64,000 bases of DNA from Mobula hypostoma (lineage: Eukaryota). The position numbers were made by a program, and so were the translations under genes. Under the pieces are notes generated by a model. The model was not told where the DNA came from. It was given only the letters and a program-made list of their open reading frames with translations, and searched no databases. The number at the start of each line of letters is the position of its first letter. Positions within the stretch are counted from its first letter, which is position 1. Of the stretch, positions 4,230 to 60,521 are shown piece by piece. The stretch spans positions 22,136,001 through 22,200,000 of the forward strand of contig NC_086097.1 of the NCBI RefSeq assembly GCF_963921235.1, in the 5' to 3' direction.

Positions 4230-4860
4230 ATCAGGCAACATTTAAGGAGGTTAATAAATAGTCAACGTTTTGGGACTGCACAGGAAGATGGAAGAAGCCA
4301 GAATAAGAAGCTGGAGAAGGGGAAAGACTGGCAGGTGATAGGTAAGACCAGGTGAGGGGGAAGGTAGGTTGGGCAAGGGGAAGAACGAAGATGCTGCGTG
4401 GTGATAGGTGGAGGAGGTAAGGAGCTGAAGAAGAAGGAACCTGATAGGACAGGACCATTTAAAAAAGGGAAGGAGGAGAGGCACCAGAGGAATGTGATGG
4501 GGAAGTTAGAAGAAGAGAAGGGGTAAGAGCCAGAATGGGGAATGGACAAAGAGAGAAGGTGGGGTGGGGGAGAATTACTGGAAGTTCGAGAAATCAATGT
4601 TCATGTCACCAGGTTGAGGGCTACCCAGGTAGAATATGTGACATTGTTCATCCAACCTGAGAGTTGCTTCGTTGTGGCAATGAGGGAGGCCATGGGCCAA
4701 CGTGTTTGAATGGGAATGGGGAGTCAAATTGAAATGGTTGACCACTGGGAAATTCTGTCTTTCGTTGCAGATTAAATCTACATTGGGTTTCAGCATTGTA
4801 GAGGCAGCTGCACTGGTATTGCTCTGGATTTCCAGCATCTACAGAATCTCTTGTATTTAT
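4230..4860 (-). mobile_element. Penelope-like element 3' remnant (GIY-YIG endonuclease C-terminus plus pyrimidine-rich terminal region)
   Basis: PVVNHFNLTPHSHS...CHNEATLRLDEQCHIFYLGSPQPGDMNIDFSNF matches the fish PLE endonuclease tail (HFN...L.P.GMN pattern). Confidence 0.75.
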
Positions 4861-5179
4861 GTCAAAAGATAGATAGACTCAGGAGAATTTAGGGAAAAGG
4901 GAATAAATTGTTTTAGTCACAGAAATCTCAAGAAAAACAACAGAAACTGGACATCTGAAACAAAAATAGACAATGTTGGAAATCACCTGGTCCTGCACCC
5001 CTATGGAAAGAAAAACTGAGTTACTATTTCAGATCAAAAAGAGTCAGCTCAAGGATTCTTTAGCTAAAACATTGTCTCTGTTTTTGTTTCTGTTTCCATA
5101 GATGCTGACTGACCCACTGGACTTTTTTTTTCGCATTTTCTGTTTTGGTTTAGTGTTCGTCATGGGGTTAAGTAAGTTA

Positions 5180-5420
5180 CTAACATTTGAACATCTGATT
5201 TAGGTTCAGGCAGTTAACAGGGAGAAGGATGGAGTCGGGGACCAGGGATGGGCAATGGTGAAGGGTGCAACACTTCTTGTCAATACTCAGAAGGAAGAAC
5301 TTTCTGTTCATCCAGCAATGGAGTCTGACAATATAGAGATGGTCGAGGAACCAAGGGAAGTGACATTGAGGTAATGCCATGTGACGGTGTAACCATGGAA
5401 ACAGGTGAGTCACAATGAGG
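5180..5420 (-). mobile_element. Old L2-like LINE RT fragment
   Basis: LHCWMNRKFFLLSIDK resembles the L2 motif WMxxNFLQLNxxKTE. Confidence 0.45.
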
Positions 5421-5740
5421 CACCACATAGACCAGAATTAGGAGATTCAAGATTCAGATTTATTTACCACATGTAAATTGAAACATACAGTGAAATGTGT
5501 TGTTTGCATTAACAACCGACACACCAAGGATGTGCTGGGGCAGCCCACAATTGTCGCCACACATTCCAGCGCCAACATAGCATGCCCACAATGCTCGGCA
5601 GAGCATCACAGTACAAAACAAAACAGAGCACAACAAGCAACAAATCAAGTTCCATTCCTCGCTCCCATCTCTGCACATACACAATCCTCTAGCTTGAGTT
5701 GAGCCTCCAGCTTCCAGTACACTTGGGCTCGGACTCACAA

Positions 5741-8670: not shown

Positions 8671-8824
8671 ACGGGCAGGCCTCGGCTTCTCAACTCTTGA
8701 GACCCTTGAAATGAGATGGAAGAGATCCATGGGAAAAGTGGAAATAATTGTGATATAGTCTTAAAAGGCATAAAAAAAAGTTGGTTACTTGAAAAGGGAA
8801 ATATAGACAGAGAGTGAAGGTGAA

Positions 8825-9420
8825 TGCAGCCGGGATTTGACCAAGTGTCCACAGATTGAATTATATCAGCCATCACTGTCTGGTCTGGTCTGGTGCAGCA
8901 TCCCCTCACAATATACGAAGACTACAGTAAGCTGTCAGGTCAGCAGAAAAGGCCATTGGCTGCCGAACTTCTATGTATCCGGGACAAAGAAGCTGGCAGG
9001 AAGAATTATTGCGGATGCAGCCTACCCTGCAACCTGCCTTTTCCAAAAGCTCCCTTCTTGAAACTACTATAGGGCTATTAAACAAAAACCATGCCAACTT
9101 AAAAGTATCTTCTCCCAGGCAGTTAATCTGACTATCCATTCTAGTTAGCCCTTCCAACCACTCTATCTATTACCCCAAGTCACTGCACGACACTGTAAAC
9201 ACTTTAAACAACCTTTTATAATTCTGTTTTCATTGCTAATACATGCTGCTATTTGTGTGTTTATGCACATTTACTCCATATCTGTACCCTAACCTCTAAC
9301 TTTATTTGTTATATAATTCTTCACAATTGTTGAATGTTGCTTTTTATTGCCAACACCAGAGCAAATTTCTAAAATGTGTACATGTGCGTGGTGAATAAAG
9401 TTGATCTTTGATCCTTGATC
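8825..9420 (+). mobile_element. Decayed Rex1/Babar-like LINE 3' end
   Basis: IIADAAYPATCLFQKLPS resembles the I..D..HP...LF..LPSGRRYR tail. AATAAA plus a short tandem tail (GATCTT) near 9400-9420. Confidence 0.55.
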
Positions 9421-10139
9421 TTTTAAGAGATTCCATGGACTCAGGCTGTGAGACTGAGAACTTCCCTCATCCCTGCACATTCGAAGGCTCCAGATAAATT
9501 CTGTCAGTTCTGCACTCTGGGACTGACCTTGGAACAGCACATTATCAGCAAACAGGGAATTTGCAGCTGCAGCTGTTCCACTTGACCTGACTCATCCACT
9601 CTCTGATGCCTGCCAACCTGGTTTTAGATAATTAATTGAAAGAAGTGTGACACATATTTGGGGTTCAGCGGCACTGCAGTCACTCTACTGGATGAGTAAC
9701 TTAGGAACCTGGACTAATGATCTAGAGACAAGAGCTCAAGCCCTAACCAAGGCAACCGGGGAATTCAAACTTGGTCAATGAAATCATCTTGGGGTAAATG
9801 CTTGAATCAGTGAAAATGATTACGTAAGAAACCATCTGACACCTAGCCATGAGGTCAACTCTTAACCGGTTAACCACTTAAGCGGTTCCGGTCAAGAGCT
9901 GCAATGTCTGTTGATGTTATGGCTCAGATCTGGTTGTTCTTTTAGGCTCGTAGAGATGGGTTTGGAGGCAGCACAGAGAGTTAGGGGTCAGATTAGGGTT
10001 TAGGGAGAGAGATGAGGTGGAGTTAGAGGGTCAAAGGGAGTAAATAGTGAGATTGGGCGGGAGTTTGAGTCCAGTTTGGGGATGCTGGGATGCTCTGTAG
10101 TTAAACGTCAGCAATCCCAGAGGCCCATCCTGGGGTTGG

Positions 10140-10141
<2 letters not shown>

Positions 10142-10212
<71 letters not shown>

Positions 10213-10233
10213 ACAGAGAGAGAGAGAGAGAGA
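10142..10233. repeat. (GT)n microsatellite followed by (GA)n
   Basis: Direct reading of the sequence. Confidence 0.98.
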
Positions 10234-10347
10234 AAGTGGTGTGTTTTTCTGCTGTTACCTTGTTTTGTTTCGATGTTTTTATTATGCTGTACTGGGATGG
10301 TGACACTTATCAAAGTTCAAAGTAAATTGATTATCAGAGTATATATA

Positions 10348-11987
10348 CAGTTGAAGTCAGAAGTTTACATACATCTTAGCCAAATACACTTAAACTCAGT
10401 TTTTCACAATTCCTGACATTTAATTCTAGAAAACATTCCCTGTCTTAGGTCAGTTAGGATCACTACTTTATTTTAAGAATGTGAAATGTCAGAATAATAG
10501 TAGAGAGAATGATTTACTTCAGCTGTTATTTCTTTCATCACTTTCACAGTGGGTCAGAAGTTTACGTACACTTTGTTAGTATTTGGTAGCATTGCCTTTA
10601 AATTGTTTAACTTGGGTCAAATGTTTTGGATAGCCTTCCACAAGCTTCTCACAGTAAGTTGCTGGAATTTTGTTCCATTCCTCCAGACAGAACTGGTGTA
10701 ACTGAGTCAGGTTTGTAGGCCTCCTTGCTTGCACACGCTTTTTCAGTTCTGCCCTCATATTTTCAATCGGATTGAGGTCAGGACTTTGTGATGGCCACTC
10801 CAATACCTTGACTTTGTTGTCCTTAAGCAACTTTGCCACAACTTTGGAGGTATGCTTGGGGTCATTATCCATTTGGAAGACCCATTTGTGACCGAGCTTT
10901 AACTTCCTGGCTGATGTCTTGAGATGTTGCTTCAATATATCCACATAATTTTCCTTCCTCATGATGCCATCTATTTTGTGAAGTGCACCAGTCCCTCCTG
11001 CAGCAAAGCAGCCCCCACAACATGATGCTGCCACCCCCATGCTTCACGGTTGGGATGATTTTCTTCGGCTTGCAAGCGTCACCCTTTTTCCTCCAAACAT
11101 AACGATGGTCATTATGGCCAAACAGTTCAATTTTTGTTTCATCAGACCAGAGGACATTTCTCCAAAACGTATTATCTTTGTCCCCACGTGCACTTCCAAA
11201 CTGTAGTCTGGCTTTTTAATGGTGGTTTTGGAGCAGTGGCTTCTTCCTTGCTGGGCAGCCTTTCAGGTTATGTCGATATAGGACTCGTTTTACTGTGGAT
11301 ATAGATACTTGTCTACCTGTTTCCTCCAGCATCTTCACAAGGTCCTTTGCTGTTGTTCTGGGATTGATTTGCACTTTTCGCGCCAAAGTATGTTCATCTC
11401 TAGGAGACAGAATGCATCTCCTTCCTGAGCAGTATGATGGCTACGTGGTCCCATGGTGTTTATACTTGCATACTATTGTTTGTACAGATGAACGTGGTAC
11501 CTTCAGGCATTAGGAAATTGCTCCCAAGGATGAACCAGACTTGACATCATTTTCTGACCTCAATCCGACAGAATATTTGTGGGCAGAACTGAAAAAGCGT
11601 GTGCGAGCAAGGAGGCCTACAAACCTGACTCAGTTACACCAGTTCCGTCTGGAGGAATGGAACAAAATTCCAGCAACTTACTGTGAGAAGCTTGTGGAAG
11701 GCTGCCCAAAACGTTTAACCCAAGTTAAATGATTTAAAGGCAATGCAAACAAATACTAACAAAGTGTATGTAAACTTCTGATCCACTGGGAAAGTGATGA
11801 AAGAAATAAAAGCTGAAATAAATCATTCTCTCTACTATTATTCTGACATTTCACATTCTTAAAATAAAGTAGTTATCCTAACTGACCTAAGACAGGAAAT
11901 GTTTTCTAGGATTAAATGTCAGGAGTTGTGAAAAACTGAGTTTAAATGTATTTGGCTTAGGTATATGTAAATTTCTGACTTCAACTG
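10348..11987 (-). mobile_element. Sleeping Beauty-like Tc1 (IR/DR) DNA transposon, rearranged with two 3' ends
   Basis: TA|CAGTTGAAGTCAGAAGTTTACATAC...GTAAATTTCTGACTTCAACTG|TA, with TA TSD and inner direct repeats near 10550 and 11765. Inverted arms 10348-10781 and 11554-11987. Confidence 0.92.
10576..11543 (-). pseudogene. Tc1 DD34E transposase pseudogene, closely resembling Sleeping Beauty transposase
   Basis: KSGSSLGAIS*CLKVPRSSVQTIV...WSDETKIELFGHNDHRYVW...KHGGGSIMLWG (frameshift) CFAAGGTGALHKIDG...FQMDNDPKHTSK...WPSQSPDLNPIEN...KGNATKY*. First ~19 codons are absent, with one early stop and a frameshift. Confidence 0.9.
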
Positions 11988-11989
11988 TA

Positions 11990-13560
11990 TGTCACCATTT
12001 ACAACCCTGAGATTAATTTTCTTATTGTGGGCATATTCAACAAATCTATAGAATAGTAACTATAACAGAATCAATGAAAGACTGCACTACTAGCACGTTC
12101 AACCAGAGTGCAGACGACTACAAACTGTGCAAATGCAAAAAGAAGAAACAATAATATTAAATAAATAAATAAGCAATAAATATTGAGAACATGTGTTGAA
12201 AAGACCCTGAAAGTGAGTTTTTGGTTATGGGAACTTTTCAATGATGGGGCAAGTGAAATTGAGTGTAGCTCAATTTCTTGTTCAAGAGCCTGATGGTTGA
12301 GGGACAGTAGCCGTTCCTAATCTTGGTGGTGTGAGCCCTGAGGCTCTTGTACTTTCTTCCTGATTGCAGCAGTGAGAAGACAGCAGGTCTGGGTGGTGAG
12401 GGTCCCCGGATGCTGCTTTTTTGTGACAGCATTTGATGTAGATGTGCCCAATCATTGGGTTGGGGGCTTTAGTCATGGTAGACTAGGCCATATCCATTAC
12501 TTTTTGTAGAATTTTCCATTAAAGGGCATTGACCAGGTTGTGATGCAGCCAGTCAATATACTCCCCACTACACTTCCATCAAAGTTTATCAAAGTTTTAG
12601 ATGTCATGCCAAATCTCCACAAACTCCTAAGGAAGTAGAGGCACTGTTATGCTTTTTCATAATTGCATTTCAGTGCTGGGCCTTAAGAAAAAGAAAAGTA
12701 CACTGAAATAATAACACCTAGGAATTTAAATTTAAAACACTGACAACCTATGAGAACTGAGACAAGGGTCTCTGGTTTCCTTCTTCTGAAGTCGATCATC
12801 AGTTCCCTAGTCTTGCTGAATTGATCAGGAGGTTGCTGTCACTGAAAATCACTCAGCCAGATTTTCAATTTACCTCCTATACGCTGATTTATTGCCACCT
12901 TTGATTCGGCCTATGGCAGTGGTGTTGTCAGCAAACTTAAATATGGCATTGGAGCTGTGCTTAGCCTCACAGTCATAAGTGTAAAGCAAGTAGAGCAGAG
13001 GGCTAAGCACACAGCCTGTGGTGCACCTCTGTTGATAGAGATATTGTTGCCAACCTGAACTGACTGGAGTCTGCAAGTGAGGAAATAGAGGATCCAATTG
13101 CACAAGGAGGTATTGAGCCAAGGCCTTGAAGCTTATTGATTAGTTTTCTGGGAATGATGGGGTTGAATTCTGAGCTATAGTCAATAAGCTGCAACACACA
13201 TAAAAGTTGCTGGTGAACGCAGCAGGCCAGGCAGCATCTCTAGGAAGAGGTACAGTTGACGTCTCGGCCCGAAATGTGGACTGTACCTCTTCCTAGAGAT
13301 GCTGCCTGGCCTGCTGCGTTCACCAGCAACTTTTATGTGTGTTGCTCGAATTTCCAGCATCTGCAGATTTCCTCGTGCATGCACCTTTGCTGTCCAGATA
13401 TTCCAAGGTTGAGTGAAGAGCCAATGAAATGGCATCTGCTGTGGACCTGTTGTGATTGTTGGCAAATTAGAGGAGATCCAAGTCGCTTCTCAGACAGAAG
13501 TTGATATGTTTCATCATCACCCTCTCAAAACACTTCTTTAGTGTGGGTGTAAGTGATATT
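11990..13560 (-). mobile_element. Rex1/Babar-like LINE (RT plus 3' UTR; tail continues at ~10310-10347 on the other side of the Tc1)
   Basis: [40 protein letters not shown] and LLQSGRKYKSLRAHTT. Confidence 0.8.
13191..13377. mobile_element. Palindromic Penelope-terminus-derived mini-element
   Basis: GCAACACACATAAAAGTTGCTGGTGAACGCAGCAGGCCAGGCAGCATCTCTAGGAAGAGGTACAGT ... exact reverse complement ending ...TGTGTGTTGC. Same family as the copies at 33331 and 51975. Confidence 0.8.
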
Positions 13561-14668: not shown

Positions 14669-17600
14669 TGTTATGTCTTTGCAACTAAATAACAATTAAC
14701 ATAAAAGTGCACACGCGGGAGATGGCTTTAACTGGTGTATTCACATTGCAGCAAGAGAGAGACAGAGAGACAATGCACTTGTGTAGACCAGTGGTCCCCA
14801 ACCTCCGGGCCGCAGACCAATACCGGGCCGCGAAGCATGCAGAGATGCAGCGGTAGCTGGAACGCACCTGGCACACCTTTAAGAAAAAAGCAGAAATAAA
14901 CAAGCTAATTAATTAGCTGCCGCCCGGCATGTAAATGTCGGCCCAGATCAGAGGGAATTGTGTGCCGGGCGGCCCAGATCAGAGATATTTATGTGCCAGG
15001 CGGCACCTAATTAATTAGTTTGTCTATTTCGGCTTTTTTCTTAAAGATGTGCTTGGTGCGTTCTGGCTACCTCAGCACCCCTGCATGCTTCGCGGCCCGG
15101 TATGGGTCCGCGGCCCGGAGGTTGGGGACCACTGGTGTGGACAACAGATCAATGCGCACGCTCAGACAACAGATAGTACATAGTGCTAAGAGGAGTCATT
15201 GATCTAAAAGAAACAGATCCATACTTTACACTTCCTTCTCCTTTAGATTAATGCAACATCAAACTGTATATGTACAAAACATTCAATTTCCCTTTCATAA
15301 ACCCATATTCCATATAAACATGCTTTCACTATAACGCTCCATAACTAACTTCATTGTTCTAAAGATTCAGTCTTTTGGGTGACACTCTGTTTCTTTCAAG
15401 TTAGCACCTCTGGACCTGGAGTGGCATCAGATTTGGTAGGTATCTTGTCTAAGATAATGTTCTCAATTTTCAGTGTCACATTGCTATCAGCGACATGATC
15501 TGAGAGGTAAGTCCGGTGGCTGTAATGTGTCCGTTTTGTTCAATACAATTGACTCCAGTGTGTTCTTCAGTTGAGCATCGAGTATCTGGTCCACATGACG
15601 TCTCCATGTCTGTGTACATCAGTGGCCCATTTCTTGTAGATATCCTATGGGGTCTCCACTTGTCTTCTCAATAATCACGCGCTAGGATTTCCTGTCCAAC
15701 CTCGAAGCTGCTTGCTGATTTACTTGGCAACTGGCTGAACTGTTTATTTTGCACTTCCCTCCGTAGGTCTGGTTTCAGGCGATCTATGATTCCTGTTCAT
15801 GAACAGCATTGCAGGTGTTTGATTTGTCATCACATGGACAGAGTTTCGATACACAAAAAGGAAGTTGCCCACCTTGTCCTGTAGAGAAATGTCCTCCTTG
15901 TCCATCACTTTAATGGACTTCCTGAATGTTTGGATAAACCCTGCAGCTAACTCATTTGCTGCTGGGTGGCGAGGAACTGACTTGAAATGTCTGATGCAAC
16001 TTACTTCATGAACAGTCGGAATTCTTCTGTCGTGTATTGTGGTCCGTTGTCACTCACAATTTGTTCTGGTAAGGCATTTCTGGTGGAGATAGTCCTCAGA
16101 GCAGTGACGGTCTTTGCTGAGGAGGTTGACTCCATTGGTATAACCTCCGGCCACTTCGAATGAGCATCCACAGCAATCAGAAACATGGAGTCCATGAATG
16201 GCCCAGCGAAGTCAATATGTACTCTTTGCCATGGTGAGATCAGCCACTCCCATGGGTGTGATGGTGCCTGTGTTACAGGTAGCAGTCATCATTGGAATTC
16301 CCTTACTGGGATTGAAAATAGATGCAAGGGGCTGGTGATCTATCACTAGCATAAACGTTTGTCCGTAGTGGTTGTTGTGGAACTTCTTTATTCCCCCTAC
16401 TAGACTAAGGGCCTCTTGGTCAATCTGTGCATGGTTGTGTTCTGCAGTCATCAGTGATATCGAGGCAAGCTCAATTGGGCACTCGGATCGATCCTTCATA
16501 GTGTGTTACCAAACAGCCCCAATGCCATAAGGGGACGCATCACATACCAGTCTGGTGAGCAGCAAAGGGTCATAAAGGGTGAGCAGTTCATCGATGTTAT
16601 TAGTCTCTTTGTTTCCTTCAATACTCTTTCACATTCTTTCAACCATTCCCAATTTGCTCCTGTTGGCAAAGGTGCATTCAATGGATGCAGCACTGTAGCA
16701 ATGTTTGGGAGAAATCAGTGGTGGTAGTCTACAAGACCCGAGTATGACCTGAGTTGTGACATACTTTCGTGTCTGAGTGCCTGTAGCTCTGCTTCAGTCT
16801 TTTCTTATGTAAGCCATGTTGTCAATGACAGGTCCATAATATGAGATTTCATTCTTGCGTGCAGACCATACTCACTTAGCCTGGTAAGCACTTTACCAGG
16901 GTTCTGGAGGTGCTCTTCATCATTTTTGCCTGCTACAATGATGAAATCAAGATAACATTGTGTTCTTGGGATAACTTGAGCACTTGTTCCCTTGCTCTTT
17001 GCCAAATTGTTAGAGCTGATGCAATGCCAAAGATGGGATGATTTTACTGGAACAGTCCCTGTGAGTGTTGATTGTGAGGAACTTCCTGCTTGACTCCTCA
17101 ATCTCCATTTGCAGATAGGGTTGTGACAAGTCAATATTTGAGAACCTCTCCCCACCTGCCAAAGATGTAACAATGTCTTCTATTCATGGCAGGGAATACT
17201 GCACATTATGCAGCACTGAGTTGATGCTCACTTTGAAATCTCTACATATGTGAACAGTTCTGGCCTTCCCATTCTTGATCACTGGAACAATGGGCATAGC
17301 CCAATGGCTCTGCTCAACTCTCAAGACAATTCCAGATGCCTTCACTCCAAGCACTGGAGTTCAGCCTCCACTCTAGGACATCGTGCATAAGGTACTGGAC
17401 ATGCTTTATGGATATTTAATGTTGCTGCTTCATCTAGTTCAAATCTGGTCTTCATGCTTTTAAGTTTACCAATCCACTTCTCAAACACTTTCTCATTAGC
17501 ATTGAGCAGCTGTTCCAGTCTTTGGTTAATGCTATCATTTGGGCTGCCGTTGCCTGGTGATACCACATTGAGAGCTTTGATTGTGTGTCAGTCTAGTTGG

Positions 17601-29265: not shown

Positions 29266-32200
29266 TTAACAAATCTAAACAAGACTTCAACGGTGCAAAC
29301 TCTAGAATTACAAACCCAACAACTTTATGTGATAACTTCACCAGAAAGAATGTGATTTCCCCCTCTTGGGTAGTTATACATGGGCAACAAATGTTGGCCT
29401 TCCAGTAACTCTTGAGTCCCAGAACAACAGGCATGATGGGCTGAATGGCCTACTGTTCATATGATTATGATGACCTGATGACCAGTCCTGATAAAAGGTT
29501 TTGGCCGAAACGTCAACGACTTATTTCTCTCCATTGATGCTGTCTGACCTGCTGAGTTCCTCCAGCATTTTGTGTTTGCTACTCCAGTATTCACTCTGCC
29601 ATGGAAATTCCCGCGTGAGCGGAGGAGGGTTGGGCATGTTGCTAGCAACCACATCCCCTAATGGTTCAAAAGGGTCAAAGGTTCATTTTGTTATCAAAGT
29701 ATGCCTGCGGAGTACAACTCTGAGATTCGTCTTCTCTAAATATCCATGAAATACAGAAAATAAATAGAGGTAATTGAAAGAAGAGACATCAAACTGCGCC
29801 CCCACCACATGAAAAGAAAGAGAAAAAAAAGCACATTAAAAATCTTTTACGTAATAACATCATCACATCAAACCAGCTGCTTAAAGCGAAACCCCAACTC
29901 AACATTGGTGGTTGCGAATTAGATACATTTGTCCCAATTAGGTTACCTTACAGAGGTCCCCCGAGAATTCACTAAAACTGACATGGTGAGCCTGTCTGGA
30001 GCTTGGACGAGTTGCCCGACTCGGACCCTGTGTTCCATGGGTGGGGGAACCGCAGGTGCCTCTGGCTCATCCAGAAGTGCGTTGACACGCTCATGGTCAT
30101 GTTGTGACAGCAGGGGCATGGCAGCAGAGTACTTCAAATCTTGGTGGGCCGGTTTAAAGTGATCCACCAAAATAACTTTCAGGTTTACCCCTCCTATCTG
30201 TGATATAAGTCTTTCTCCCCATTCCAAAATGCGCAATAGGCCATTGTAAGGGTGCCTAAGGGGATGTTGGTGTGCGTAATGCTGGAAGAAAACAGACAAG
30301 ACAGAATGTGGGTCAACAGGAACCCGAGAATACTGTACAGTATGATGGGAGGTAGGAACAGGTGAAAAAGAATCGGATTTACTGAGGAGGGTGGAAAGTT
30401 GTTGAGAGCCAACCTGGCAGTTATGGTGTCAGGAAAGAAATCTCCTGGCACTCATAAGAGCTACCCAGATACCAACTCAGCCCTGGACCACTGCAGGTCC
30501 TCCTTTGCAGCTGTTCTGAACCCCAGCAGAACCCATGGGAGCCAAACATGCCAATACTCGTCCATCAGGGAAGTGCACAGAGTACCCTTTAAGGAGCGGT
30601 AAAACTGCTCACATAGGCCATTGGACTATGGGTGATACACCGTGGTGTGATGTATCTTAACGCTTATGTTCTGGGCTATCACAGCCCAGAGGTCTGAATC
30701 GGGGGCCGCGGTCAGAGGAAATACCAGATGTGGCGCCAAACAAAGTAACCCAGTTGCTGATGAACACCCAAACCATGTCTGCGGCTGTCGTTGACTATAG
30801 TGGGACGACCTCTAGCCATCTGGTAGTATGTTAATAGTCATAGTCATACTTTATAGATCCTGGGGGAAATTGGTTTTCGTTCCACCATGGTAAGAAGGTA
30901 CAGGAGTCGTGGGAGGGGAGATAAGGACCAACAAGGTCCACATTGACATGGTCAAACTGTCGCTCAGGGACCTCAAAAGGTGCCAATAGCGCCTGAATAT
31001 GACGGTTAATTTTTGTCTGCTAGCACTCGACACGGGCTCCTTTCTGAGGCCGTGCCAAACAAACTTTAGTACAACCAGTTTCTGTGAGGCCTTCCAGCCT
31101 GAACGTGAGAAGCAATGTATTGAGTTGAAAACTGTCCATCTCCAGTTTGCGGGCACAATGGGGTAATGGGTGACCAGTTGAGATATCGTACTGGACAGAA
31201 ACCCCAGCTTCCCTGAAATTAGAATGAGCCAACCGCAGGCCTGTGACTGCTGATCGTTATGCCTGGACCTCTGGGTCAGTAGTCTGGTTGGCTGCCATGC
31301 CGGCGTAGACAACCCCTATGTGTACGGCCTCAACGGCTGGCCATGAGAGGCAATTAGCCATGGCATTATCTTTCCCCTTGATATGCTGTATATCAGTTGT
31401 GAACTCAGATACCTAGGCCCAGTGGCATTGCTGCCGTGCAGACCAAAAAGTCTGATATTTAGGTCATTGCGTGCACGAAAGGTTTGGGGTCAATGAACGC
31501 TGTGAAAAAGTGACTCTCTAGAAGAAAGCGAAAATGGTGGACAGCCGGATAGAGACCGAGAAGCTCAAGGTCAAACGTGCTGAACTTCCTTTCGGGGTGA
31601 TGGAGCTGCCGACTGAAGAAGGTGAGTGGCTGGCACACACCTCCAACCAACTGTTTATGCACAGCACCCACAGCACAGTCCGACGGGTCAGTAGTAATGG
31701 CTACAGGTGCATTGGGGAGTAGATGCACCAGGAGGGTCCCGTTGGAAAGAGCTTGTTTGGATCATTAAATGCCCTGGTTATGTCTGCTGACCAGTCAAGC
31801 ACGTGCTTAGGGGTATCACCTTTAACTGCTCTATAGAGGGGGAGCATAAGTTCAGCAGTCTGTGCAATAAAGTGGTGATAGAAATTGCTTATGCCTAACA
31901 ACTCCCGTAGTATTTTTTTGGTAGTGTGGGACAGTCGGAAATCCATAGTAGCAGCTACTTTTGATGGGAGGGGTTTCACATCTTCTGCGGAGATGCGATG
32001 GCCAAGAAAGTCAATGGTTGACAACCCAAGCTACCATTGAAGAGCGTTAATTATCAACCCGTGTTCGAGAAGTGTGTGGAGATGAATACGTGTTCAGATT
32101 TGGATGCACTGGTGACAGATATATAATCCAGGTAAACGAAAAGAATATCTATGTCTTTTAATACAGAGTCCGTCAGCTGTTGGAAAGTCCGTGTTGCATC

Positions 32201-44829: not shown

Positions 44830-46695
44830 CTTACATACTGAGCTATAGGGTACCGAACAGTGTGGTAGAACAGAGGGATCTTGGAATACAGATCTATAAT
44901 TCCTTGGAAGTGGCATCACAGGTAGATAGGGTGGTAAAGAAATCTTTTGGCACATTGCCCTTCATAAATCAATGTATTGAGTACAGGAATTGGGATGCTA
45001 TGTTGTAATTAAAGAGACCTAGTTTGGAATATTATAACCGGTTTTGTTTGCCTACCTACAGTAAAGATGTAAATAAGATTGAAAGAGTGTAGAGAAAATT
45101 TACATGGATGTTGCTGAGACTTCAGGACATGAGTTATACGAAAATGTTGAGTAGTTTCGGACTTAATCCCTAGGACATAGAAGATTGAGTGGAGATTTGA
45201 TAGAGGTATACAAAATTATGTGGGGTATAGATAGGGTAAATGCAAACAGGCTTTTTCCACTGAGGCTGGGGGAGACTAGAACTAGAGGTCATAGGTTGAG
45301 GGTGAACGATGAAATGTTTAAGAGAAATACAAGGGGAAACTTTTTCACTCAGAGGGAGGTAAGAGTGCGGAATAAGCTCCCAATGTCAGTGGTGGGTGCG
45401 GCATTGATTTCAACTTTTAAGCAGAATTTGGATAGGAACATGAATGGGATGGACGGCAATGGTCTGGGATCAGGTGAATAAGACTAGGCAGATTTGTTGT
45501 GTATTTAAGATTTCAATAATATTTCAGTAAATTTGTGTATAAATAGGTTGATTAAGCATTCTTATTTGTTTAAATAATTTAAATTCTTCTGCATTCAAGA
45601 TGAGGTAGTAAATTGGATTAGATATCGACTTTGTGGGAGAAGCCAAAGAGTGATAGTAGAGGGTTTTCTCTCTGACTGGAGGCCTCTGGTAAGTGGTGCG
45701 CCACAGGGATCGGTGCTGGGTCCTTTGTTGTTTGCCATCTATATCAACGATCTGGATGATAATGTGGTTAACTAGAGCAGCAAATTTGCAAATGACACCA
45801 AGGCTGGGGTTGTGGTGGACAATGAGGATGGCTATCATTACCTGCAGAGGGATCTGGACCAGCTGGAAAATGGTCTGAAAAATGACAGATGGAATTTAAT
45901 GCAGACCTCTGTGAGGTGTTGCACTCTGGTAGGACCTAACCAGTTTAGGTCTTACACGGTGAACGGTACAGTACTGAGGAGTGTGGTAGAACAAAGGGAT
46001 CTGGGAATACAGGTCCTTAATTCATTGAAAGTGGTGTCACAGGTAGATAGGGTCGTAAAGAAAGCCTTTGGCACATTGGCTTTCATAAATCAATGTACTG
46101 AGTACAGAAGTTGGAAAGCTATATTGAAGTTGTATAAGACATTGGTGAGGCCTAATTTGCAGTACTGTGTGCAGTTTTGGTTACCTATCTACAGGAAAGA
46201 TATAAACAAGGTTGAAAGAGTATAGAGAAAATTTAGAAGGACATTGCTGGATCTAGAGTACCTGAGTTATAAGGAAAGGTTGAATAAGTTAGGACTTTAT
46301 TCCTTAGAACTTAGAAAATTGAGAGGGGATTTGATAGATATCTACGAAATAATGAGGAATATAGATAGGGTAAATGTAAGCAGGCTTTTTCCACTGAGGT
46401 TGTGAGGGACTACAACCAGAGGTCATTGGTTAAGGGTGAAAGATGAATAGTTTAAGGGGAACATGAAGGGAAACTTCTTCACTCAGACAGTTGTGGGAGT
46501 GTGGAATGAGCTCCTAGTACAAGTGGTGCATACAAGCTCGATGTTTAAGAAAAGTTCAAATAGGTACACGGATGGTAGGGATTATGGAGGGCTATGGTCC
46601 CGGTGCAGATCGATGGGAGTAGGCAGTTTAAATGGTTTTGGCATGGAATAGATAGGCTGAAGGGCCTGTTTCTGTAATGTACTTCTCTATGACTC
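44830..46695 (+). mobile_element. Two adjacent CR1 3' fragments (~44830-45490 and ~45580-46695)
   Basis: GDLIEVYKIM...RTRGHRL...[25 protein letters not shown]...LVRPNLQYCVQFW. Confidence 0.85.
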
Positions 46696-47809: not shown

Positions 47810-48440
47810 ACGGCTGGCTGGGAATGTCCACCCATATCTTTAACCTCTTGCTTTTGCCGTCTGAGGTACCCACTTGCTTCAAGGAGGCTTCAATTATACT
47901 GGTGCCTGAGAAGAACGTGGTAACCTGCTCCAATGACTATTGCCCACTATGATAAAGTGTTTTAAGAGGTTGGTGATGAAACATATCAACTCCTGCCTGA
48001 GAAGCAACTTGGATCTGCTCCAATTTGCCAACAATCTCAACAGGTCCACAGCAGTTGCCATTTCATTGGCTCTTCACTCAACCCTGGAGCATCTGGACAG
48101 CAAAGGTTCATACATCAGAATGTGCTTTATTGACTATAGGTCAGCATTCAACTACATCATTCTCACAAAACTAATCAATAAGCTTCAAGACCTTGGCCTC
48201 AACACCTCCTTGTGCAATTGGATCCTTGATTTCCTCACTTGCAGACTCCAGTCAGTTCAGATTGACAACAACATCTCTATCAACAGGCTGTGTGCTTAGC
48301 CCCCTGCTCTACTCACTTATGACTGTGTGGCTAATCACAGCTCCAATGCCATATTTAAATTTTCTGATGACACCACTGTCATAGGCCGAATCAAAGGTGG
48401 TGATGAATCAGTGTATTTGAGGGAGATTGAAAATCGGGGT
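47810..48440 (+). mobile_element. Rex1/Babar-like LINE RT fragment
   Basis: KCFKRLVM...LQFA...FIDYRSAFN...CNWILDFLT...FKFSDDTT. Confidence 0.85.
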
Positions 48441-48659
48441 GATATGGTGAGAGGGAAATGGGAATGGGGAATAGTGAAGGAGAGGGGTGGGGCATTACCA
48501 GATTTTCTATGGTTTCTGCATCCCCCCCCCCCCCCAGCCTCTTAGGATCATTATCCTCCTCTCATCTCTCATTCAGTTGACTGCCTGTAGGACTGCCTTG
48601 GAACCTCAGTAAGTGTGCAACACTTACGTTACATTATATAAATAATATTAACATTTACT

Positions 48660-49560
48660 TTATACTGACAATCGTCTCTGCTGTTTCATGAAATTGTTAT
48701 CCTCTAATTTTTGAATTATTTCAGCCTTCTACCTTCTCAGTTGATATACAATAAGCAACATAATTATCAGGGTACATAAAATTAGCATTACAGCAGCATG
48801 CGATACTGTTCTCACCCACGGACGTGTTTGAACATTTGTTCCCCAATTCCAAAACTAACTCCAAAAGCCTGAGTCACCCACTATTTCATTTGCCTTAGCA
48901 GCATGTGTTTTAATTACTTTAATGTGTTTAGTCCATTTCTGGATTGTCACCCTTTCTTCCTCTACAACACATGTCCAGTCTGTAGTCAAGTGCGGAATTG
49001 GTGGCAACTCAGTAACAGCATTGTCCCACAGATATTGATCTGTATCAGAGCATTGGATCTTGAAGTTCTCCTTCATTACTGTGTTTCCTGTTGGTTGAGA
49101 CAAAGTTCGTCCTCCAATGGCCAGATGTAAAGTCACATTCCCTATGGCGACATGGTGACTTTCCAAAAGGACATTGTTTCCATCCCTTGTATAACTCGTG
49201 GACACTGTTGCTCTGTGAGGGGTGATGGATAAGTTCGTGGTCTCAGGTAGAAGGTGATGAGTTATACAGCTCTCGCTACATGTACGTGCAGTGCAACTCT
49301 TTGAGTGATTATGCAGAACTTAGGCCACAAACTTATCAATCACCCCTGCTGTTCTCCTGTATACAGTTAATGATCAAAGCATCCTTTGAAAAATACTTGG
49401 CTGTAACCCCCCCCCCAATAGATATCTCGAGTGAACCTGTCCCACTCACATTCACATGAACGTGATCCCACAGAACTATAATCTTTACCAAAGGGCTGCG
49501 CACCAAATGGACCTAAAAACTGACTATTATTCTCTCTGGGATACTTGATGTGAGTCTTCA
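48660..49560 (-). pseudogene. env-like type I membrane glycoprotein C-terminal remnant
   Basis: ORF 48855-49205 read through a TAG gives ...KTHAAKANEIVGDSGFWS*FWNWGTNVQTRPWVRTVSHAAVMLILCTLIIMLLIVYQLRR*KAEIIQK...LSV*: helical segment, Trp-rich region, TM helix, basic stop-transfer residues, short tail. NVT sequon present. Confidence 0.6.
49219..49346. mobile_element. Small mariner-like MITE inside the env remnant
   Basis: 28-bp inverted termini GGGGTGATGGATAAGTTCGTGGTCTCAG / CTTAGGCCACAAACTTATCAATCACCCC (4 mismatches). No clean TA TSD. Confidence 0.6.
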
Positions 49561-50599
49561 CCTTTGTGACTGTGTCCTTTTACCTTCACATATATCCCAC
49601 ATTTGGCTCTCCTCTCACCACCCTGTACTGATGAAGAGCCATCTGCAAAAAAATTAAAATGGGGTTTTTATTTTTCCTTTGTGTCTTTGTTCTTAGATAT
49701 TGCTTTCTGACCTCATTCTACCTCCTCCATTATTATTTGATACAAATGGTCCCTTGTGATCATTTGCTATCATTTTCTGATGCCCATGCAGTTCTCCAGT
49801 ACAATAAAGATTATCTGCAAGGGAGGTAGAAACTTTGGTACCCTTTACAACTACATCTCAACCTTGCAGTGTCAGGGCAGACTAACCAAGTCATTTTAAT
49901 TCAAACATCCAACAGTGGCTAGGTAAATATGTTCTATAAAAAAAGTCTTGTTAGTAAAAGCAACTTTTAGGATAGCTCCCCAAATGTTCCAGTCTTCACA
50001 AAATGTCAAATTCAAATTCCAAATTTTACTGTCCACTAATGAGTGATTTTCCTGAATGTCCATTTCCTTCAGAAATGTGGGCATCTCATCTTCGGATTAG
50101 AAATGCACAAATTTCGTTCTCAACCCAGATTACTGCTGGCCAGTATGGAAACTGAGCTTCCTTAAATTCAATTCCATGGAAAACAAATAAAGAAACACAA
50201 ATCAAAACATAGACAGGACAAACAAAAATCCTTGCCTGTACTGTTCTTCCTTTATAACCTGCTGTAAGTACTATAACTGCAAAACTTAAAATAAACAGTT
50301 AATTACCTCCATGAAAAAAATTCCAAATGTTTCTCAAAGAGCGAAGGAAAAGTGAAAAAAACTGCTGGCCAGGGGCCCCCGACACATTAACGCATTGATG
50401 CAATCTCTCTCACTTGAAACATGCAAGCAATTTACTCTTTAAACCATTTCAGAAAATCTCTTGTTCCTGTTGTCACAATATTGAGATACAAATTGACAAC
50501 ATTAATGTGTTATTCTGAGCCTTTAAAACAAAGAGACTTCATGCATAAGTAAACAACATTCAACAAGTTTAAAGCATGAAATCTCCACATTAACCAATA

Positions 50600-50802: not shown

Positions 50803-51974
50803 GAGAGTGAATTGACCATTCACTGACCAGAAGAAGGGTGACTACTGCGACTGAATGGTCCCGAGAACAACCGAGGCTGACTACATAAGGAAAGAGCGGG
50901 GCCAAATTTGGCCAAGGAGTCTCCCATGGGAGAGTGGTCAAGAAATTTAGGGAGATTGAAGAAGAAGCTGAACTGCAAACTGTGAAGAATAGGAGGAAAA
51001 TTGAGAGAGAGGATGATACAAGTTCCTGGAGGATTATAAAATTATAAGGAGAAAGCTGATGTAGGTAGGGGAGCATAGGGTTGCTGGGCATGGGTTAGGT
51101 CCTGGTCGGAGCTTTGGGTCACTCTCAGATTATTTGAGAAATTAGTCAACAGAGGACTGACAGTTAAAACCAGAGAGGTTTGATGGATATTCTCTTTTAA
51201 TATTTCCTGTGTTCATTGATCCCCTCTGGGGGGGAGGATTTGGGAGTGTAGTGGTTAGCATACCTGGGGGAAGCAACAGAGTCTGTCCCTGTGGCTCAGA
51301 AGGGTAGGGAAAGAATGGAAGCAGCAGTAATAGGGGACTCTATAGTTAAGGGGTCAGATAGGCGATTCTGTGGACGCAGGAAAGAAACGTGGATGGTAGT
51401 CTGCCTCCCAGGTGCCAGGGTCCGGGATGTTTCAGATGGTGTCCACAATATTCTGAAGTGGGATGGTGAACAGCCAGAGGTTGTGGTACATATTGGTACC
51501 AACGATATAAGTAGGAAAAGGGAGGAGGTCCTGAAAACAGACTACAGGGATTTAGGAAGGAAGTTGAGAAGCAGGACCTCAAAGGTAGTAATCTCGGGAT
51601 TACTGCCTGAGCCATGCAACGGTGAGTATAGGAATAGAGTGAGGTGGAGAATAAATGCGTGGCTGAGGGTTTGGAGCAGGGCGCAGGGATTCAGATTTCT
51701 GGATCATTGGGACCTCTTTTGGGACAGGTGTGACCTGTACAAAAAGCACGGGTTGCACTTGAATCTGAGGGGGACCGATACCCTGGCAGGGAGGTTTGCT
51801 AAGGCTATTGGGGAGAGCTTAAACTAGAATTGCTGGGGGGGGTGGGAACCGAACTGAAGAGACAGAGGAAGGGGCAGTCGGCTCACAAATAGAGAAAGCT
51901 TGGAGACTGTACAAGAGGGAGGATAGGCAGATGATAAAGAAGGGATATGCTCAGACAGATGGTTTGAGATGTAT

Positions 51975-52134
51975 GCCAGGCAGCATCTCTAGGAAGAAGT
52001 ACAGTCGACGTTTCAGGCTGAGACCCTTCGTCGGGACATACCTCTTCCTAGAGATGCTGCCTGGCCTGCTGCGTTCACCAGCAACTTTGATGTGTGTTGC
52101 TTGAATTTCCAGCAACTGCAGATTTCCTTGTGTT
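51975..52134. mobile_element. Palindromic Penelope-derived mini-element inserted in CR1
   Basis: GCCAGGCAGCATCTCTAGGAAGAAGTA...TACCTCTTCCTAGAGATGCTGCCTGGC. TGGTTTGAG duplicated at 51960-51968 and 52135-52143. Confidence 0.8.
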
Positions 52135-53959
52135 TGGTTTGAGGCATGTCTATTTTAATGCAAGAAGCATCATGAACAAAGCGGATGAGCTTGGAGCATG
52201 GATCAGTACTTGGAGCTATGATATTGGGGTCAATACAGAGACTTGGATGGCTCAGGGGCAGGAATAGTTACTTCAAGTGCCAGGCTTTAGATGTTTCAAA
52301 AAGGACAGGGAGAAAGGCAAAAGAGGTGGGGGCATGGCACTGCTGATCAGAAATAGTGTCAAGGCTGCAGAAAAGGAGAAAGTCATGGAGGGATTATCTA
52401 CTGAGTCTCTGTGGCTGAAAGTTAGAAACAGGAAAGGGTCAATAACTCTATTGGGTGTTTTTATAGACCACCCAATAGTAACAGGGACATCGAGGAACAG
52501 ATAAAGAGAGATTCTGGGAAGGTGTATTAATAACAGGGTTGTCGTGGTGGGAGATCTGAATTTCCCAGACATTGATTGACATCTCCCTAAAGTGAGGGGT
52601 TTAGATGGGGTGGAGTTTGTTAGGTGTGTTCAGGAAGGCTTCTTGACACAATATGTAGATAAGCCTACAAGAGGAGAGGCTGTACCTGATCCAGTATTGG
52701 GAAAAGAACCTGGTCAGGTGTCAGGTCTCTCAGTGGGAGAGAATTTTGGAAATAGTAATCACAATTCTGTCTCCTTTACCATAGCGTTGGAGAGGGATAG
52801 GAATAGACAAGTTAGGAAAGTGTTTAATTGGAGTAAGGGGAAATATGAAGCTATCAGGCAAGAACTTGGAACTTGGAGAGGGAGGAGGTTGCTGAGCCTC
52901 TGACAATGATCTTTGCATCATCAGTGGGGGCAGGAGAGGTTCCAGAGGGTTGGAGAGTTGCAGATGTTGTTCTCTTATTCAAGAAAGGGAGTAGAGATAG
53001 CCCAGGAAATTATAGATCAGTGAGTCTTACTTCAGTGGTTGGTAAATTGATGGAGAAGATCCTGAGAGGCAGGATTTATGAACATTTGGAGAGGCATAAT
53101 ATGATTAGAAATAGTCAGCATGGATTGTCAAAGGCAGGTCGTGCCTTACAAGCCGGATTGAATTTTTTGAGGATGTGTCTAAACACATTGATGAAGGTAG
53201 AGCAGTAGATGTAGTGTATATGGAATTCAGAAAGGCATTTGATAAGGTACCCCATGCAAGGCTTTTTGAGAAAGTAAGAAGACTTGGGATCCAAGGGGAC
53301 ATTGCTTTGTGGATCCAGAATTGGCTTTCTCACAGAAGGCAAAGAGTGGTTGTAGATGGGTTATGTTCTGCATGGAGGTTGGTGATCAATGGTTTGGTGA
53401 TCAGTGGTGTGCCTCAGGGATCTGTTTTGGGACCCCTTCTATTCGTGATTTTTATAAATGACCTGGATGAGGAAGTGGATGGATGAGTTAGTAAATTTGC
53501 TGATGACACGAAGGCTGGGGGTGTTGTGGATAGTGTGGAGGGCTATCAGAGGTTACCGTGGGACATTGATAGGATGCAAACTGGGCTGAGAAGTGGCAGA
53601 TGGAGTTCGACCCAGATAAGTGTGAAGTGGTTCATTTGGTAGGTCAAATATGATAGCAGAATATAGTATTAATGGTAAGAGTCTTGGCTGTGTGGAGGAT
53701 CAGAGGGATCTTGGGGTCCGAGTCCATAGGACACTCAAAGCTACTGTGCAAGTTGACTCTGTGGTTAAGAAGGTATACGGTGCATTGGCCTTCATCAACT
53801 GTGGGATTGAGTTTAAGAGCCGAGGGGTAATGTTACAGATGCATAGGACCCTGGTCAGAACCCCCTTGGAGTACTGTGCTCAGTTCCAGTCACCTCAGTA
53901 TAGGAAGGATGTGGAAACTATAGAAAGGGTGCAGAGGAGATTTACAAGAATGTTACCTG

Positions 53960-58447: not shown

Positions 58448-60521
58448 CTCCCAGCCCTGTCCAGTGACTCCCCCGTTTGAGGGATAGTCTCATCTTCCTG
58501 ATGGGCAGTAGACGTGTACTGGTCACTCCAGTAAAGTCGTGTCCCTGGCTACGGGCACCAGAAGCCCATTTTTGGCAGCTGCTGGTTGCGCTTTGGCTCT
58601 GCCAAGCCGCACTGTGAACAGCCTACCGACGCTGCAGGTGCTCCCCAACCCGGCCTCCTCAGGAGTCTCTGGCTCAGGAGGGATCCAGACACCTGATTCA
58701 CCAGTGTGTGTGCAGCTCCCACCGAACGTGAGCACAGCCTGCGTGCGTGTGGTGCTGTCCTGAACGGCAGTCCGGTATGCTCACAATACCAGGGGTGGGT
58801 AGCGATCCCAATCGCGCTGGTGTTGGCTGACGAGGATGGTAGGCTGCGTAGCCAGCGTGGGGGTTAGAGCACTCCACCAGCCCGTCACTTTGCAGGTAAA
58901 GGGGGGTGGTCCGCGTTTTGGACATTCTCAGCCACCTGCAGACCTCACCAAGCACCTGTGCCTCAAAGTTGCACCCCGGTCGCTGTGGAATTCCTCAGGG
59001 ATGCCGAAGTGGCAGAAAAACTCCCCCATGAGTCCCTCAGCAGTGATGATGGTTCAGCGGTCTGGGACTGCGCACGCCTCTGGCCACTTCTTGAAATAAT
59101 CCATGGACACGAGGACGTAGCTGTTCTCGGTGTCCATGCAGGGGAAGGGGCCCAGGATGTCCACCACTACGCGTGCGACTGGCAGTCTGGCCCCTTCTGC
59201 AACGTGCAAGTGTCACAGTAATGCATGACCCTCTCCACACCCTGCCTGCGCCCAGACCAGCAGAAGGCTTTGCACAGCTTGCCCAACGTTTTTGCAACCC
59301 CAAAATGGCCAGCAACCACCAGCCCGTGCACCAACTACAGCACCGTGATGTGGGGCCCCCGGGGGACCAACAGCTTCAGGAGATGTCGGGAAGCTGCTCC
59401 CGCCGGAACAAAAGCCCGTCGCACACTTCCAGCGTGCCTCGCTGAGGATATAGGGCTTTGGTCTCTGGATCCATGTGGAGACCTCCCACCACCCCACCCG
59501 CTGCGTCACGCTCTGCCATCCCGTCACCTGGGCAAGCACAGGGTCGCTCACCTGCTCGCTGCCAGCTGCTGGTGGCCCATGGTGGGGAGTTCGCTGCCAG
59601 CTGTCACTCGAGGCGCCATCTCTGCCGCTTGCCCTTGGCTCTGCTCCTTGAGGTGGTGGCAGTAGCAACACTTGGATGACTCACAAGGGTGGCGGGAGAG
59701 GGCGTCAGCATTGCTATGGTGCCCACGGTGCGGTGATGTACCTCGAAATTGAGAGCCTCCAGCCGCCATGCCAGCTGCCCCTCGGGATTGTGGAAGTTGA
59801 ACAGCGTGGTCCATGTGAAGCAGGAACCTTCAACAGAAGAGGTAAGAGCTGACGTGGTGGATGCCGCGGTAGCGCGGCCGGTGTTGTCGTGCTGTGTCAG
59901 TGCGGTTGCTGATGACAGGCAAGGTGACCAGCACTGGGGTGAACGGTGATGGTGGGTATCGCCCCGTCGCAGGTTATGGCGTGTGCTCTGTGTTGCGTTA
60001 GGCCGCTGCAGGGTGTGCTGCACTATGGCGGACCACTGCGAGACTGGTGGCGGTTGTTCCTGCCCTGCCGGAGATTCACGGCTTCAACGCCGAGGTAGAG
60101 TGTTGTCCACGCAGCTCCCCAGCGGGACAGCAGGTCCAGGCCAATGATTCAGGGAGAGCCGGATGACAGATAGCCACACCTCGTGCTCCACTGCGTTTTC
60201 CCCACTTCAACACACACCCACCTCATCCTTCTCATCGCTACACAGTTGCCGGAGACCGCAGTGTCCACCCAGGCTGGTCCGTGTTGGGGAGGACATCCAG
60301 ACAGATGATGGTGACGGTTGACCCCCGTGTCCACAAACGCACAGCATCTGATGCCCTTCTTCCCTCTGCCAGCACCTCGGCCACTGATGACTGTAATGTC
60401 AGGTGAACATGCTGCTGAAGGCGTTCCGGTGTCAGTGCCTTTACAAAGGCGTGGCGGGCAAGCTCTTCCTGAGCTGCTAGAGGGAACTGGGGATAGGCAT
60501 GCTGAGCACAGTGGCAGAGAG

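Follow-up and report, generated by a model that had tools for sequence, protein, structure and literature searches.

Snakehead retrovirus (SnRV) and the SnRV-like endogenous retroviruses (ERVs) are, among the named references compared here, the closest relatives by reverse transcriptase (RT) of an ERV family that has left a relic in a 64,000-nucleotide stretch of the Mobula hypostoma genome (NC_086097.1, positions 22,136,001 to 22,200,000), hereafter the window. SnRV-like ERVs have already been reported in cartilaginous fish, e.g., CmiERV lineage I of the elephant shark (PMC4422223), and the clade containing SnRV has coelacanth, zebrafish, amphibians and reptiles among its hosts (Naville & Volff, PMC4977317). 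SnRV Gag is described as a coiled coil followed by a single zinc finger, whereas spumaviruses have no zinc finger (PMC2717909). Ovex1, a domesticated ERV of birds, has been placed nearest to SnRV and class III (PMC2717909). Two further groups are pertinent. Lokiretroviruses, which are defined by RT phylogeny as the sister group of all other retroviruses, have an envelope protein (Env) resembling the fusion (F) proteins of paramyxoviruses and pneumoviruses (PMC7947760). Foamy-virus Env has the same fold as the fusion proteins that were defined as class Ib by Fernandez et al. 2024 (PMC11468914). Malik & Eickbush (as quoted in PMC7947760) described, as a hallmark of retroviruses, the succession of a Gypsy-type RNase H remnant and an additional RNase H.

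All coordinates are in window numbering unless another sequence is named, and every ERV part described here lies on the minus strand. The segment from 48540 to 49875, perhaps extending to 50201, is a non-functional relic of an ERV family whose lineage is probably SnRV-like rather than lokiretroviral, the affinity that the initial annotation had suggested. The window copy is a heavily deleted member of a multi-copy ERV, and presumably now encodes nothing and does nothing. By itself it is an ordinary dead ERV fragment, a piece of genomic debris; the family is more informative than the window piece.

The initial annotation, made from the letters of the window, listed four parts in retroviral order: a tether, an RNase H start, an env tail and a G-rich polypurine tract (PPT). 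The first three are in place, and retroviral pieces are recognizable in the correct order from 49875 down to 48540; the G-run is something else (see below). At the protein level, the tether segment aligns to the part of full-length copies that separates the Gypsy-type RNase H remnant (the tether) from the true RNase H. Tblastn with the tether-end open reading frames (ORFs) of two family copies, c40 and c2, aligned to 49875–49645 with E values of 8.8e-8 and 3.9e-11, and the stretch holds stops and one frame change. At the DNA level, 49773–49608 matches c40 7538–7701 and c2 2002–2169 by blastn. The motif FADGSS..GIY, read earlier as the start of RNase H, corresponds to residues 624–643 of a frog Pol, P0057, whose Pfam RNase_H domain spans residues 619–767. 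This pairwise BLASTP match is weak alone (E 0.066); what places the motif is that the DNA is colinear with full copies, namely with the c40 7538–7701 segment. The string that follows, KVKGHS, matches P0057 742–747. Because the first strand of the domain runs straight into KVKGHS, the RNase H remnant is internally deleted, with the middle of the domain gone.

Beyond this point the remaining RNase H, the integrase (IN) and the start of env are deleted, and next comes a scrap of the env surface subunit (SU). A large deletion had been suspected; alignment resolves it into two stretches missing from the window copy, c40 ~7701–10280 and ~10496–11501. Of Env, no more than the last fifth is retained. 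Window 49223–48735 matches residues 550–710 of P0004, an intact Env relative described below, at 35% identity (tblastn, E 1.3e-25). The retained part runs from the end of a beta-rich domain through the C-terminal heptad helix and a W-rich membrane-proximal motif to the transmembrane (TM) anchor and a short tail; it has one in-frame TAG at 48855–48857 and a terminal TAG at 48729–48731. The membrane-protein tail recognized in the initial annotation is thus genuine except for the first ~34 residues of its 154-aa ORF, which are contributed by an inserted miniature inverted-repeat transposable element (MITE). The MITE, also suspected at the outset, is 130 bp long and occupies the site where ~1 kb of env is gone. 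The genome holds 910 first-look candidates for it, and the 40 of these that were scored are 85–93% identical. MITE copies often adjoin partial inverted copies of themselves.

The extent of the family is seen on searching the 3.48-Gb, 200-contig genome from which the window comes with window 48500–49945 as the query. This search listed 46 matches, from the 40 scored among 1493 first-look candidates, a candidate count that is inflated because the MITE is embedded in the query. At least 39 places besides the window are 78–86% identical to the env-tail part (query positions ~730–1406); the surrounding DNA had been described as otherwise unique-looking, which does not hold for this segment. In 17 of the 19 loci that were fetched, homology begins at window 49212–49214, and in the other two at 49197 and 49207. 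It ends at 48540–48544 in 18 of them; in L014 it breaks at 48657, where there is an insertion, and resumes to 48540. A second search, with a natural env segment in which one stop was read as X, gave 152 matches at E<=0.001 from the 150 scored of 345 candidates, most of them riddled with stops.

Two loci, L013 and L019, also match the part of the window upstream of the env tail. Both have the same internal junctions as the window copy, with different flanks. Because at least these two other loci share the junctions while differing in their flanks, a deletion derivative that had neither gag, the protease (PR) nor RT, and little of RNase H, IN and env, would itself have been copied. The window copy would later have gained the MITE and lost its PPT and 3′ long terminal repeat (LTR) at a junction with a fragment of a long interspersed nuclear element (LINE). 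Upstream, the derivative possibly retains a 5′ leader: the stretch at the far end of the relic (Table 1) is homologous only to sequence that follows the end of the 5′ LTR in L019. There, L019 6–104 matches the 3′ end of the family LTR, and the homology to window 50201–49930 starts ~25 nt past this LTR end. No LTR is recognizable in the window upstream of this leader stretch, nor did alignment with family copies and blastn reveal either a 5′ or a 3′ LTR anywhere in the window copy. A protein-level search upstream of 49875 gave no match.

The proposal that the G-rich run followed by TG is the PPT is contradicted by these alignments. Family homology stops at 48540, and 16 aligned copies run ~25 nt past this point before reaching the family tract, AAGAGGAGGGAGA, and the LTR start, TGTTGG, both of which are absent from the window. 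A 28-nt match between the G-run region and the L013 LTR (E 5e-4) was judged to be low-complexity noise.

Might the window peptides be chance ORFs, or parts of host genes? Pfam recognizes nothing in the window's own pieces: five of the six ORF pieces match no family, and the sixth has one chance hit (E 0.21). Against this stand the ~80% DNA homology to dozens of copies, which continues into pol and LTRs, and the protein match to Env cited above. We give this explanation almost no credence.

Table 1. Features of the relic and its immediate borders, in window coordinates.
Feature	Coordinates	Strand	Basis
Possible 5′ leader of deleted ERV derivative	49930..50201	-	blastn, 50201–49930 = L019 125–394, 74%
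Tether C-terminal end (degenerate Gypsy-type RNase H) and linker to RNase H	49645..49875	-	tblastn
RNase H (PF00075 type) remnant	49588..49667	-	BLASTP to frog Pol P0057; DNA colinearity
env SU scrap	49352..49545	-	blastn: c40 10280–10496, 69%; c45 10157–10303, 75%; c2 10175–10322, 72%
MITE inserted in env	49218..49347		29-nt terminal inverted repeats, 86% complementary
env C-terminal part	48729..49212	-	tblastn to P0004; DNA matches at other genomic places (see text)
Post-env untranslated stretch	48540..48728	-	Alignment with 16 copies; family homology stops at 48540
G-run at LINE-fragment junction	48521..48539	-	Alignment; not homologous to family PPT
LINE RT fragment, not part of ERV	47937..48510	+	RT-like ORFs; blastn to c40 2209–2798 insert

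Fuller genomic copies, the recovery of which the initial annotation had recommended, show what the window copy has lost. The 10 kb upstream of six copies was fetched and compared; of the copies named here, c40 joins L022 and L004, and c45 is L014/L023. Full copies are ~13 kb long, bounded by LTRs of ~840 bp (TG..CA) and flanked by a target duplication of 4 bp. Between the LTRs come gag (with a coiled coil and a single zinc knuckle), PR, RT, tether, RNase H, IN and env, in this order. In c40, the LTRs start with TGTTGG at 86 and 12205 and end in ..AACA, ATGC is found on both flanks, and the 3′ LTR is preceded by AAGAGGAGGGAGA, the PPT and LTR start together occupying c40 12192–12210. Multi-copy LTR-gag-pol-env elements with a PPT and a target duplication are therefore present in this genome, i.e., the full copies are retroviral in structure. 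A primer-binding-site-like string of the MLV type, TGGGGGCTCG, occurred in one of the eight sequences scanned (c45), is absent from the window, and was dropped.

Pfam matches to c40 are, in order, zf-CCHC (5.8e-8), RVT_1 (1.4e-12 and 6.9e-14), RT_RNaseH_2 (1.8e-9), RNase_H PF00075 (2.2e-13), Integrase_H2C2 (4.7e-16) and rve (4e-17). The gag ORFs have a single CCHC knuckle and otherwise only weak hits of coiled-coil type (Csm1_N, COG3_N and bZIP, ~1e-3), and no Pfam family matches the env ORFs. Thus, the Gypsy-type remnant followed by a PF00075-type RNase H is found in c40 and likewise in the relative P0057, so that the cryptic ERV with a dual RNase H is borne out by the full copies. The c40 LTR pair differs by a Kimura two-parameter (K2P) distance of 0.22 over 714 aligned sites, from which the family is judged to be old. 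At the mammalian rate of Han 2015 (PMC4422223), the uncalibrated age would be about 50 My, and older at slower shark rates. The old provirus c45 has also received younger insertions: at positions 4148–8274 of its oriented stretch it is interrupted by nested, mutually inverted repeats that are 92–94% identical to each other.

The dual RNase H bears on the idea that the family is not retroviral at all, being instead an env-carrying, errantivirus-like Ty3/Gypsy element. The tether still scores as RT_RNaseH_2, and F-type env genes are common in metazoan errantiviruses (bioRxiv 10.1101/2023.10.26.564294). Intact homologues of invertebrate errantiviruses are not reported from vertebrates in the same source; moreover, the PF00075-type second RNase H follows the tether, and a branch with 100/100 support and a length of 0.93 sets the RT apart from 11 Ty3/Gypsy rows. 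We regard a Ty3/Gypsy identity as very improbable.

Within the retroviruses, the family most likely belongs with the SnRV-like group, related to class III, as far as its Pol and gag sequences tell. This reading draws on RT closeness, the RT motif LPQGF, the RT tree, the type of gag and the earlier record of SnRV-like ERVs in a cartilaginous fish. The c40 RT ORF (103 aa) is 63% identical by BLASTP, over ~96 aa, to P0141, a Pol of 1362 aa with an RT string that agrees with the SnRV row in the supplement of Wang & Han (PMC7947760). The loki, foamy, ZFERV-2 and SnRV rows printed there were compared with the family by hand count. Over ~180 RT-core positions, identities are ~55% for SnRV, 37% for Loki-Pfl, 36% for Loki-Aro, 36% for feline foamy virus (FFV) and 35% for ZFERV-2. 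Over the 97 positions of the c40 RT ORF, they are 62% for SnRV, 46% for Loki-Pfl and 42% for FFV. The BLASTP value of 63% to P0141 therefore validates the hand count for SnRV. The family, SnRV, and the frog and coelacanth relatives share LPQGF, whereas all 24 printed loki RTs carry P-F-G (PFGY in 23, PFGL in one). The gag, with its coiled coil and one knuckle, matches the description of SnRV Gag in PMC2717909, and the dual RNase H is a further likeness to SnRV. SnRV-like retroviruses have gag and pro-pol in one frame with read-through of a stop codon; in the copies recovered here, this junction is badly broken.

An IQ-TREE analysis of 32 RT rows, which contained no loki, foamy, epsilon or gamma references, groups the family with P0141 and with rows from Xenopus, Latimeria, frogs and birds in a single 100/100 clade, the one parted from the Ty3/Gypsy rows. 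The nearest database relatives of the RT are from coelacanth and frogs, and the nearest Pols carry the NCBI name 'NYNRIN-like'. An integrase nearest to CGIN1/NYNRIN is a lokiretroviral trait, but the label is also given to ERVs that are not loki. A scan of IMG/VR with the RT alignment returned 14 loci: 13 contigs of ~7–7.7 kb with the RT near the end, taken as caulimovirus-like, and a fragment of 545 bp. No retrovirus was among them, and they were left aside.

Four bird 'NYNRIN-like' proteins in the same RT clade, P0061, P0063, P0064 and P0069, have no YxDD and form a tight 100/100 group. These features fit the domesticated Ovex1 locus (PMC2717909), which the group resembles. Ovex1 itself differs from the window family in being a single-copy host locus with an unrelated ORF3, whereas the family is multi-copy and decayed.

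Several observations weigh against the SnRV-like placement. The tree lacks the reference lineages named above, and the lineage call leans partly on hand-counted identities. Branching inside the 100/100 clade is not resolved, and P0141 sits on a long branch (0.99). The whole RT of a degenerate family copy, P0056, is only 38% identical to P0141 (334 aa, 228 bits), vs 47–50% to frog 'NYNRIN-like' ERV Pols. The integrase scores about equally against prototype foamy virus (PFV) IN (125.7 bits) and P0141 (119 bits); against P0141, identities are 32% over 268 aa for IN and 36% over 89 aa for RNase H. The comparison with SnRV covers Pol and gag, with SnRV Env outside it, so that a swap of env by recombination is conceivable. 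In addition, the Env model discussed below is of middling confidence, and PF00523 does not match the family Env directly. Finally, the window family differs from SnRV in being endogenous, decayed and, by its LTR divergence, old. On balance, the SnRV-like placement remains the one we prefer.

The chief rival is that the family is a foamy-like, spumaretrovirus-related ERV of cartilaginous fish. Among sequences of solved structures, foamy virus is the best match to RT, RNase H and IN alike: RT scores 142 bits against foamy virus, 118 against XMRV/MLV, 107 against Ty3 and 55 against HIV-2; IN scores 109.5 against Ty3, below its PFV score; and the best RNase H match is PFV RNase H. Being the best solved match is biased toward foamy virus, because the PDB holds no SnRV protein. 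Endogenous foamy viruses of cartilaginous fish are the subject of a paper cited in PMC11468914, and the Env fold is held in common (see below). The single CCHC knuckle of c40 gag, on the other hand, is a feature of SnRV and not of spumaviruses (PMC2717909), and the hand-counted RT identities of FFV and ZFERV-2 (35–36%) are well below that of SnRV. A foamy-like affinity is, in our estimate, unlikely, though it is the alternative we take most seriously.

The lokiretroviral assignment of the initial annotation, which would make this the first loki element in cartilaginous fishes, has several points of resemblance in its favor: gene order, the tether plus RNase H, an F-like Env and an RXKR-type cleavage site. 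Both the F-like Env and the dual RNase H fit the published description of lokiretroviruses (PMC7947760). The foamy virus match of RNase H can also be read in this direction, as the RNase H of lokiretroviruses was grouped with that of foamy viruses by Wang & Han (PMC7947760). By eye, the family Env shares a K-[IV]-H-N-V-G block and the W-rich juxtamembrane block with printed loki Envs. The RT is nonetheless nearer to SnRV than to any printed loki row counted (36–37% over ~180 aa and 46% over 97 aa, vs 55% and 62–63% for SnRV), and LPQGF stands in place of the loki motif. An F-like Env is not specific to lokiretroviruses, since foamy viruses have one too (PMC11468914). Furthermore, none of the six chondrichthyan genomes screened by Wang & Han was loki-positive (PMC7947760), yet two of the species in that screen, Scyliorhinus torazame and Chiloscyllium punctatum, both carry homologues of the P0004-type Env. 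We consider a loki origin distinctly improbable.

The analysis of the envelope draws on two unusually open env copies of the genome, a 548-codon frame (L030) and a complete 741-codon frame (L057), the latter belonging to a related subfamily. P0004 is the intact 733-aa Env read from the first Met of the 741-codon frame. It has a signal-like N-terminus, a single furin-type site, RRRR at 279, with a hydrophobic, G-rich fusion peptide directly after it, eight N-glycosylation sequons and 15 Cys. The layout of the protein is a signal peptide, an extra N-terminal beta-rich region, RRRR, the fusion peptide and a long heptad helix, followed by F-like beta domains, a second heptad helix, the W-rich juxtamembrane motif and the TM anchor. 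A regular-expression scan of P0004 found no CX6CC, CX6C or CWLC. The earlier remark that no gamma-type CX6CC motif is visible in the surviving part therefore extends to the intact protein, which differs from gamma-type Envs in having neither the CX6CC loop nor CWLC. The step taken from there, that without CX6CC the element is loki-like, is an unsafe one.

Relatedness to the F proteins of paramyxoviruses and pneumoviruses had also been proposed, with structure prediction as the suggested check, and here profile, Foldseek and VIA-align comparisons agree. A profile of the env family matches F0 chains of the paramyxovirus hPIV3 type at E 2e-4, the alignment taking in the beta domains and the heptad region near the C terminus. 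The AlphaFold2 model of P0004 has a mean pLDDT of 63.6 and a pTM of 0.42, with confident regions at 210–270 and 350–590. Searching the PDB with this model, Foldseek returned post-fusion RSV F first (E 2.6e-11), then the F proteins of Langya virus, hPIV3, NDV and hMPV; 219 PDB hits have E<=0.001, and only F proteins head the list. VIA-align gave RSV F a Z of 10.9 (322 residues, rmsd 15.6), hPIV3 F a Z of 10.8 (341 residues, rmsd 7.0), Nipah F a Z of 10.6 (277 residues, rmsd 5.7) and foamy-virus Env (8rm0) a Z of 7.6 (260 residues, rmsd 4.5 Å, 15% identity), the last having the lowest rmsd and highest identity in the list. The best 50 entries are all F proteins or foamy Env (Z 7.6–10.9). In BFVD, the best matches of the model include the Envs of the epsilonretroviruses WEHV-1 (3.7e-13) and WDSV (4e-11), both predicted structures, as well as arli-, lispi- and chu-virus glycoproteins, baculovirus F and FFV gp130. 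BFVD also contains a match to a 928-aa viral protein, A0A384ZVF2 (E 2.1e-14). ESM Atlas scores of 0.85 or below against clusters of coronavirus spike, HA, F0 and baculovirus F were treated as leads only.

From the profile match and, on the predicted model, the Foldseek, VIA-align and BFVD matches, the Env is a class I fusion protein of the paramyxovirus/pneumovirus-F and foamy-virus type, i.e., an F-like 'class Ib' protein in the sense of Fernandez et al. 2024 (PMC11468914). The BFVD matches further suggest that the epsilonretroviral Env may be of F type, as judged from predicted models. The likeness to paramyxovirus and pneumovirus F (PF00523) lies in the fold and in the order of cleavage site, fusion peptide, heptad repeat A (HRA), beta domains, heptad repeat B (HRB) and TM; the family Env differs in being retrovirus-encoded, in its 8–15% identity and in ~210 aa of extra N-terminal sequence. 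With foamy Env it shares the F-type core and an N-terminal subunit larger than that of paramyxovirus F; it differs in having no evidence of the foamy leader peptide or of a second membrane span.

Sequence databases contain few relatives of this Env. In Pfam searches, neither the 548-aa nor the 733-aa env relative produced a PF00523 (Fusion_gly) row at E<=10. HMMER found only 36 Env relatives among 1.84 billion representatives, and a word-based homologue search with the intact env found one protein. The 20 relatives looked up come from sharks, skates, sawfish and rays (17), frogs (two) and an unnamed metagenome cluster (one); those with names are all 'uncharacterized' or mis-merged gene models. 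The metagenome homologue, P0036, matches P0004 at E 1.5e-5 and has a PF00523 match (E 4.7e-6) that falls short of the Pfam cut-off. P0036 is a 571-aa F-like protein in a 21-member cluster, from ENA metagenome contigs of up to 8.9 kb. Two annotated proteins, P0016 of Pristis pectinata (880 aa, 'TRP channel pyrexia-like') and P0030 of Heterodontus francisci (545 aa, 'fbxo15 isoform X3'), have stretches 41–60% identical to the Env and are probably host gene predictions into which ERV pieces have been merged.

The complete env frame lies at L057:3290-5515 (G000:C2:126459289-126461514, + strand). It is the only intact copy among the 61 scored; the next best are 51–81% identical, nearly all with in-frame stops. 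Upstream of it there are degraded remnants of PR, RNase H and IN and no ORF of >=100 aa. A 745-aa annotated protein of Hypanus sabinus is 93% identical to its product. A 2875-nt contig from a sequencing run of another organism covers the ORF at ~5.5% divergence, and among the indels listed for this contig all are downstream of the stop. The contigs covering parts of L057, the only parts interpreted, are of unspecified library type and have no bearing on transcription. The pattern fits selection on the ORF and is not proof of it, and this env is a candidate for a captured env gene in stingrays.

The neighborhood of the relic contains debris of other elements. The LINE fragment abuts the truncated ERV 3′ end on the opposite strand and forms an inverted repeat with another LINE copy (I1). 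LINE RT/endonuclease fragments lie on the plus strand at 45776–46405, 47937–48545 (the stretch with the abutting fragment) and 51252–53208, and integrase-like or RT-like matches of other LTR elements lie on the minus strand at 58721–59313, 30464–30965 and 16598–16954.

What makes the family of interest is that it joins an SnRV-like-looking Pol to an Env with the paramyxovirus-F and foamy-virus fold. An SnRV-like lineage carrying an F-type env may be new. A literature search for F-like Env in SnRV or epsilonretroviruses found no such statement; its coverage was incomplete, and the point may already be in print. If a proper tree bears out the placement, no fewer than three deep lineages of retroviruses (loki, spuma and SnRV-like) would have F-like envelopes, which would bear on whether such an envelope was the original retroviral fusogen or was exchanged repeatedly with negative-strand RNA viruses. 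We advance, tentatively and as a joint proposal more apt to fail than to hold, that the F-type env of an SnRV-like orthoretroviral lineage in sharks, rays and frogs, which predicted models suggest is also present in epsilonretroviruses, is a candidate for the ancestral envelope of early fish retroviruses, and that the L057 env has been kept by selection as a stingray host gene. The intact L057 env, for its part, is open to testing as a possible captured envelope gene of a lineage of live-bearing rays.

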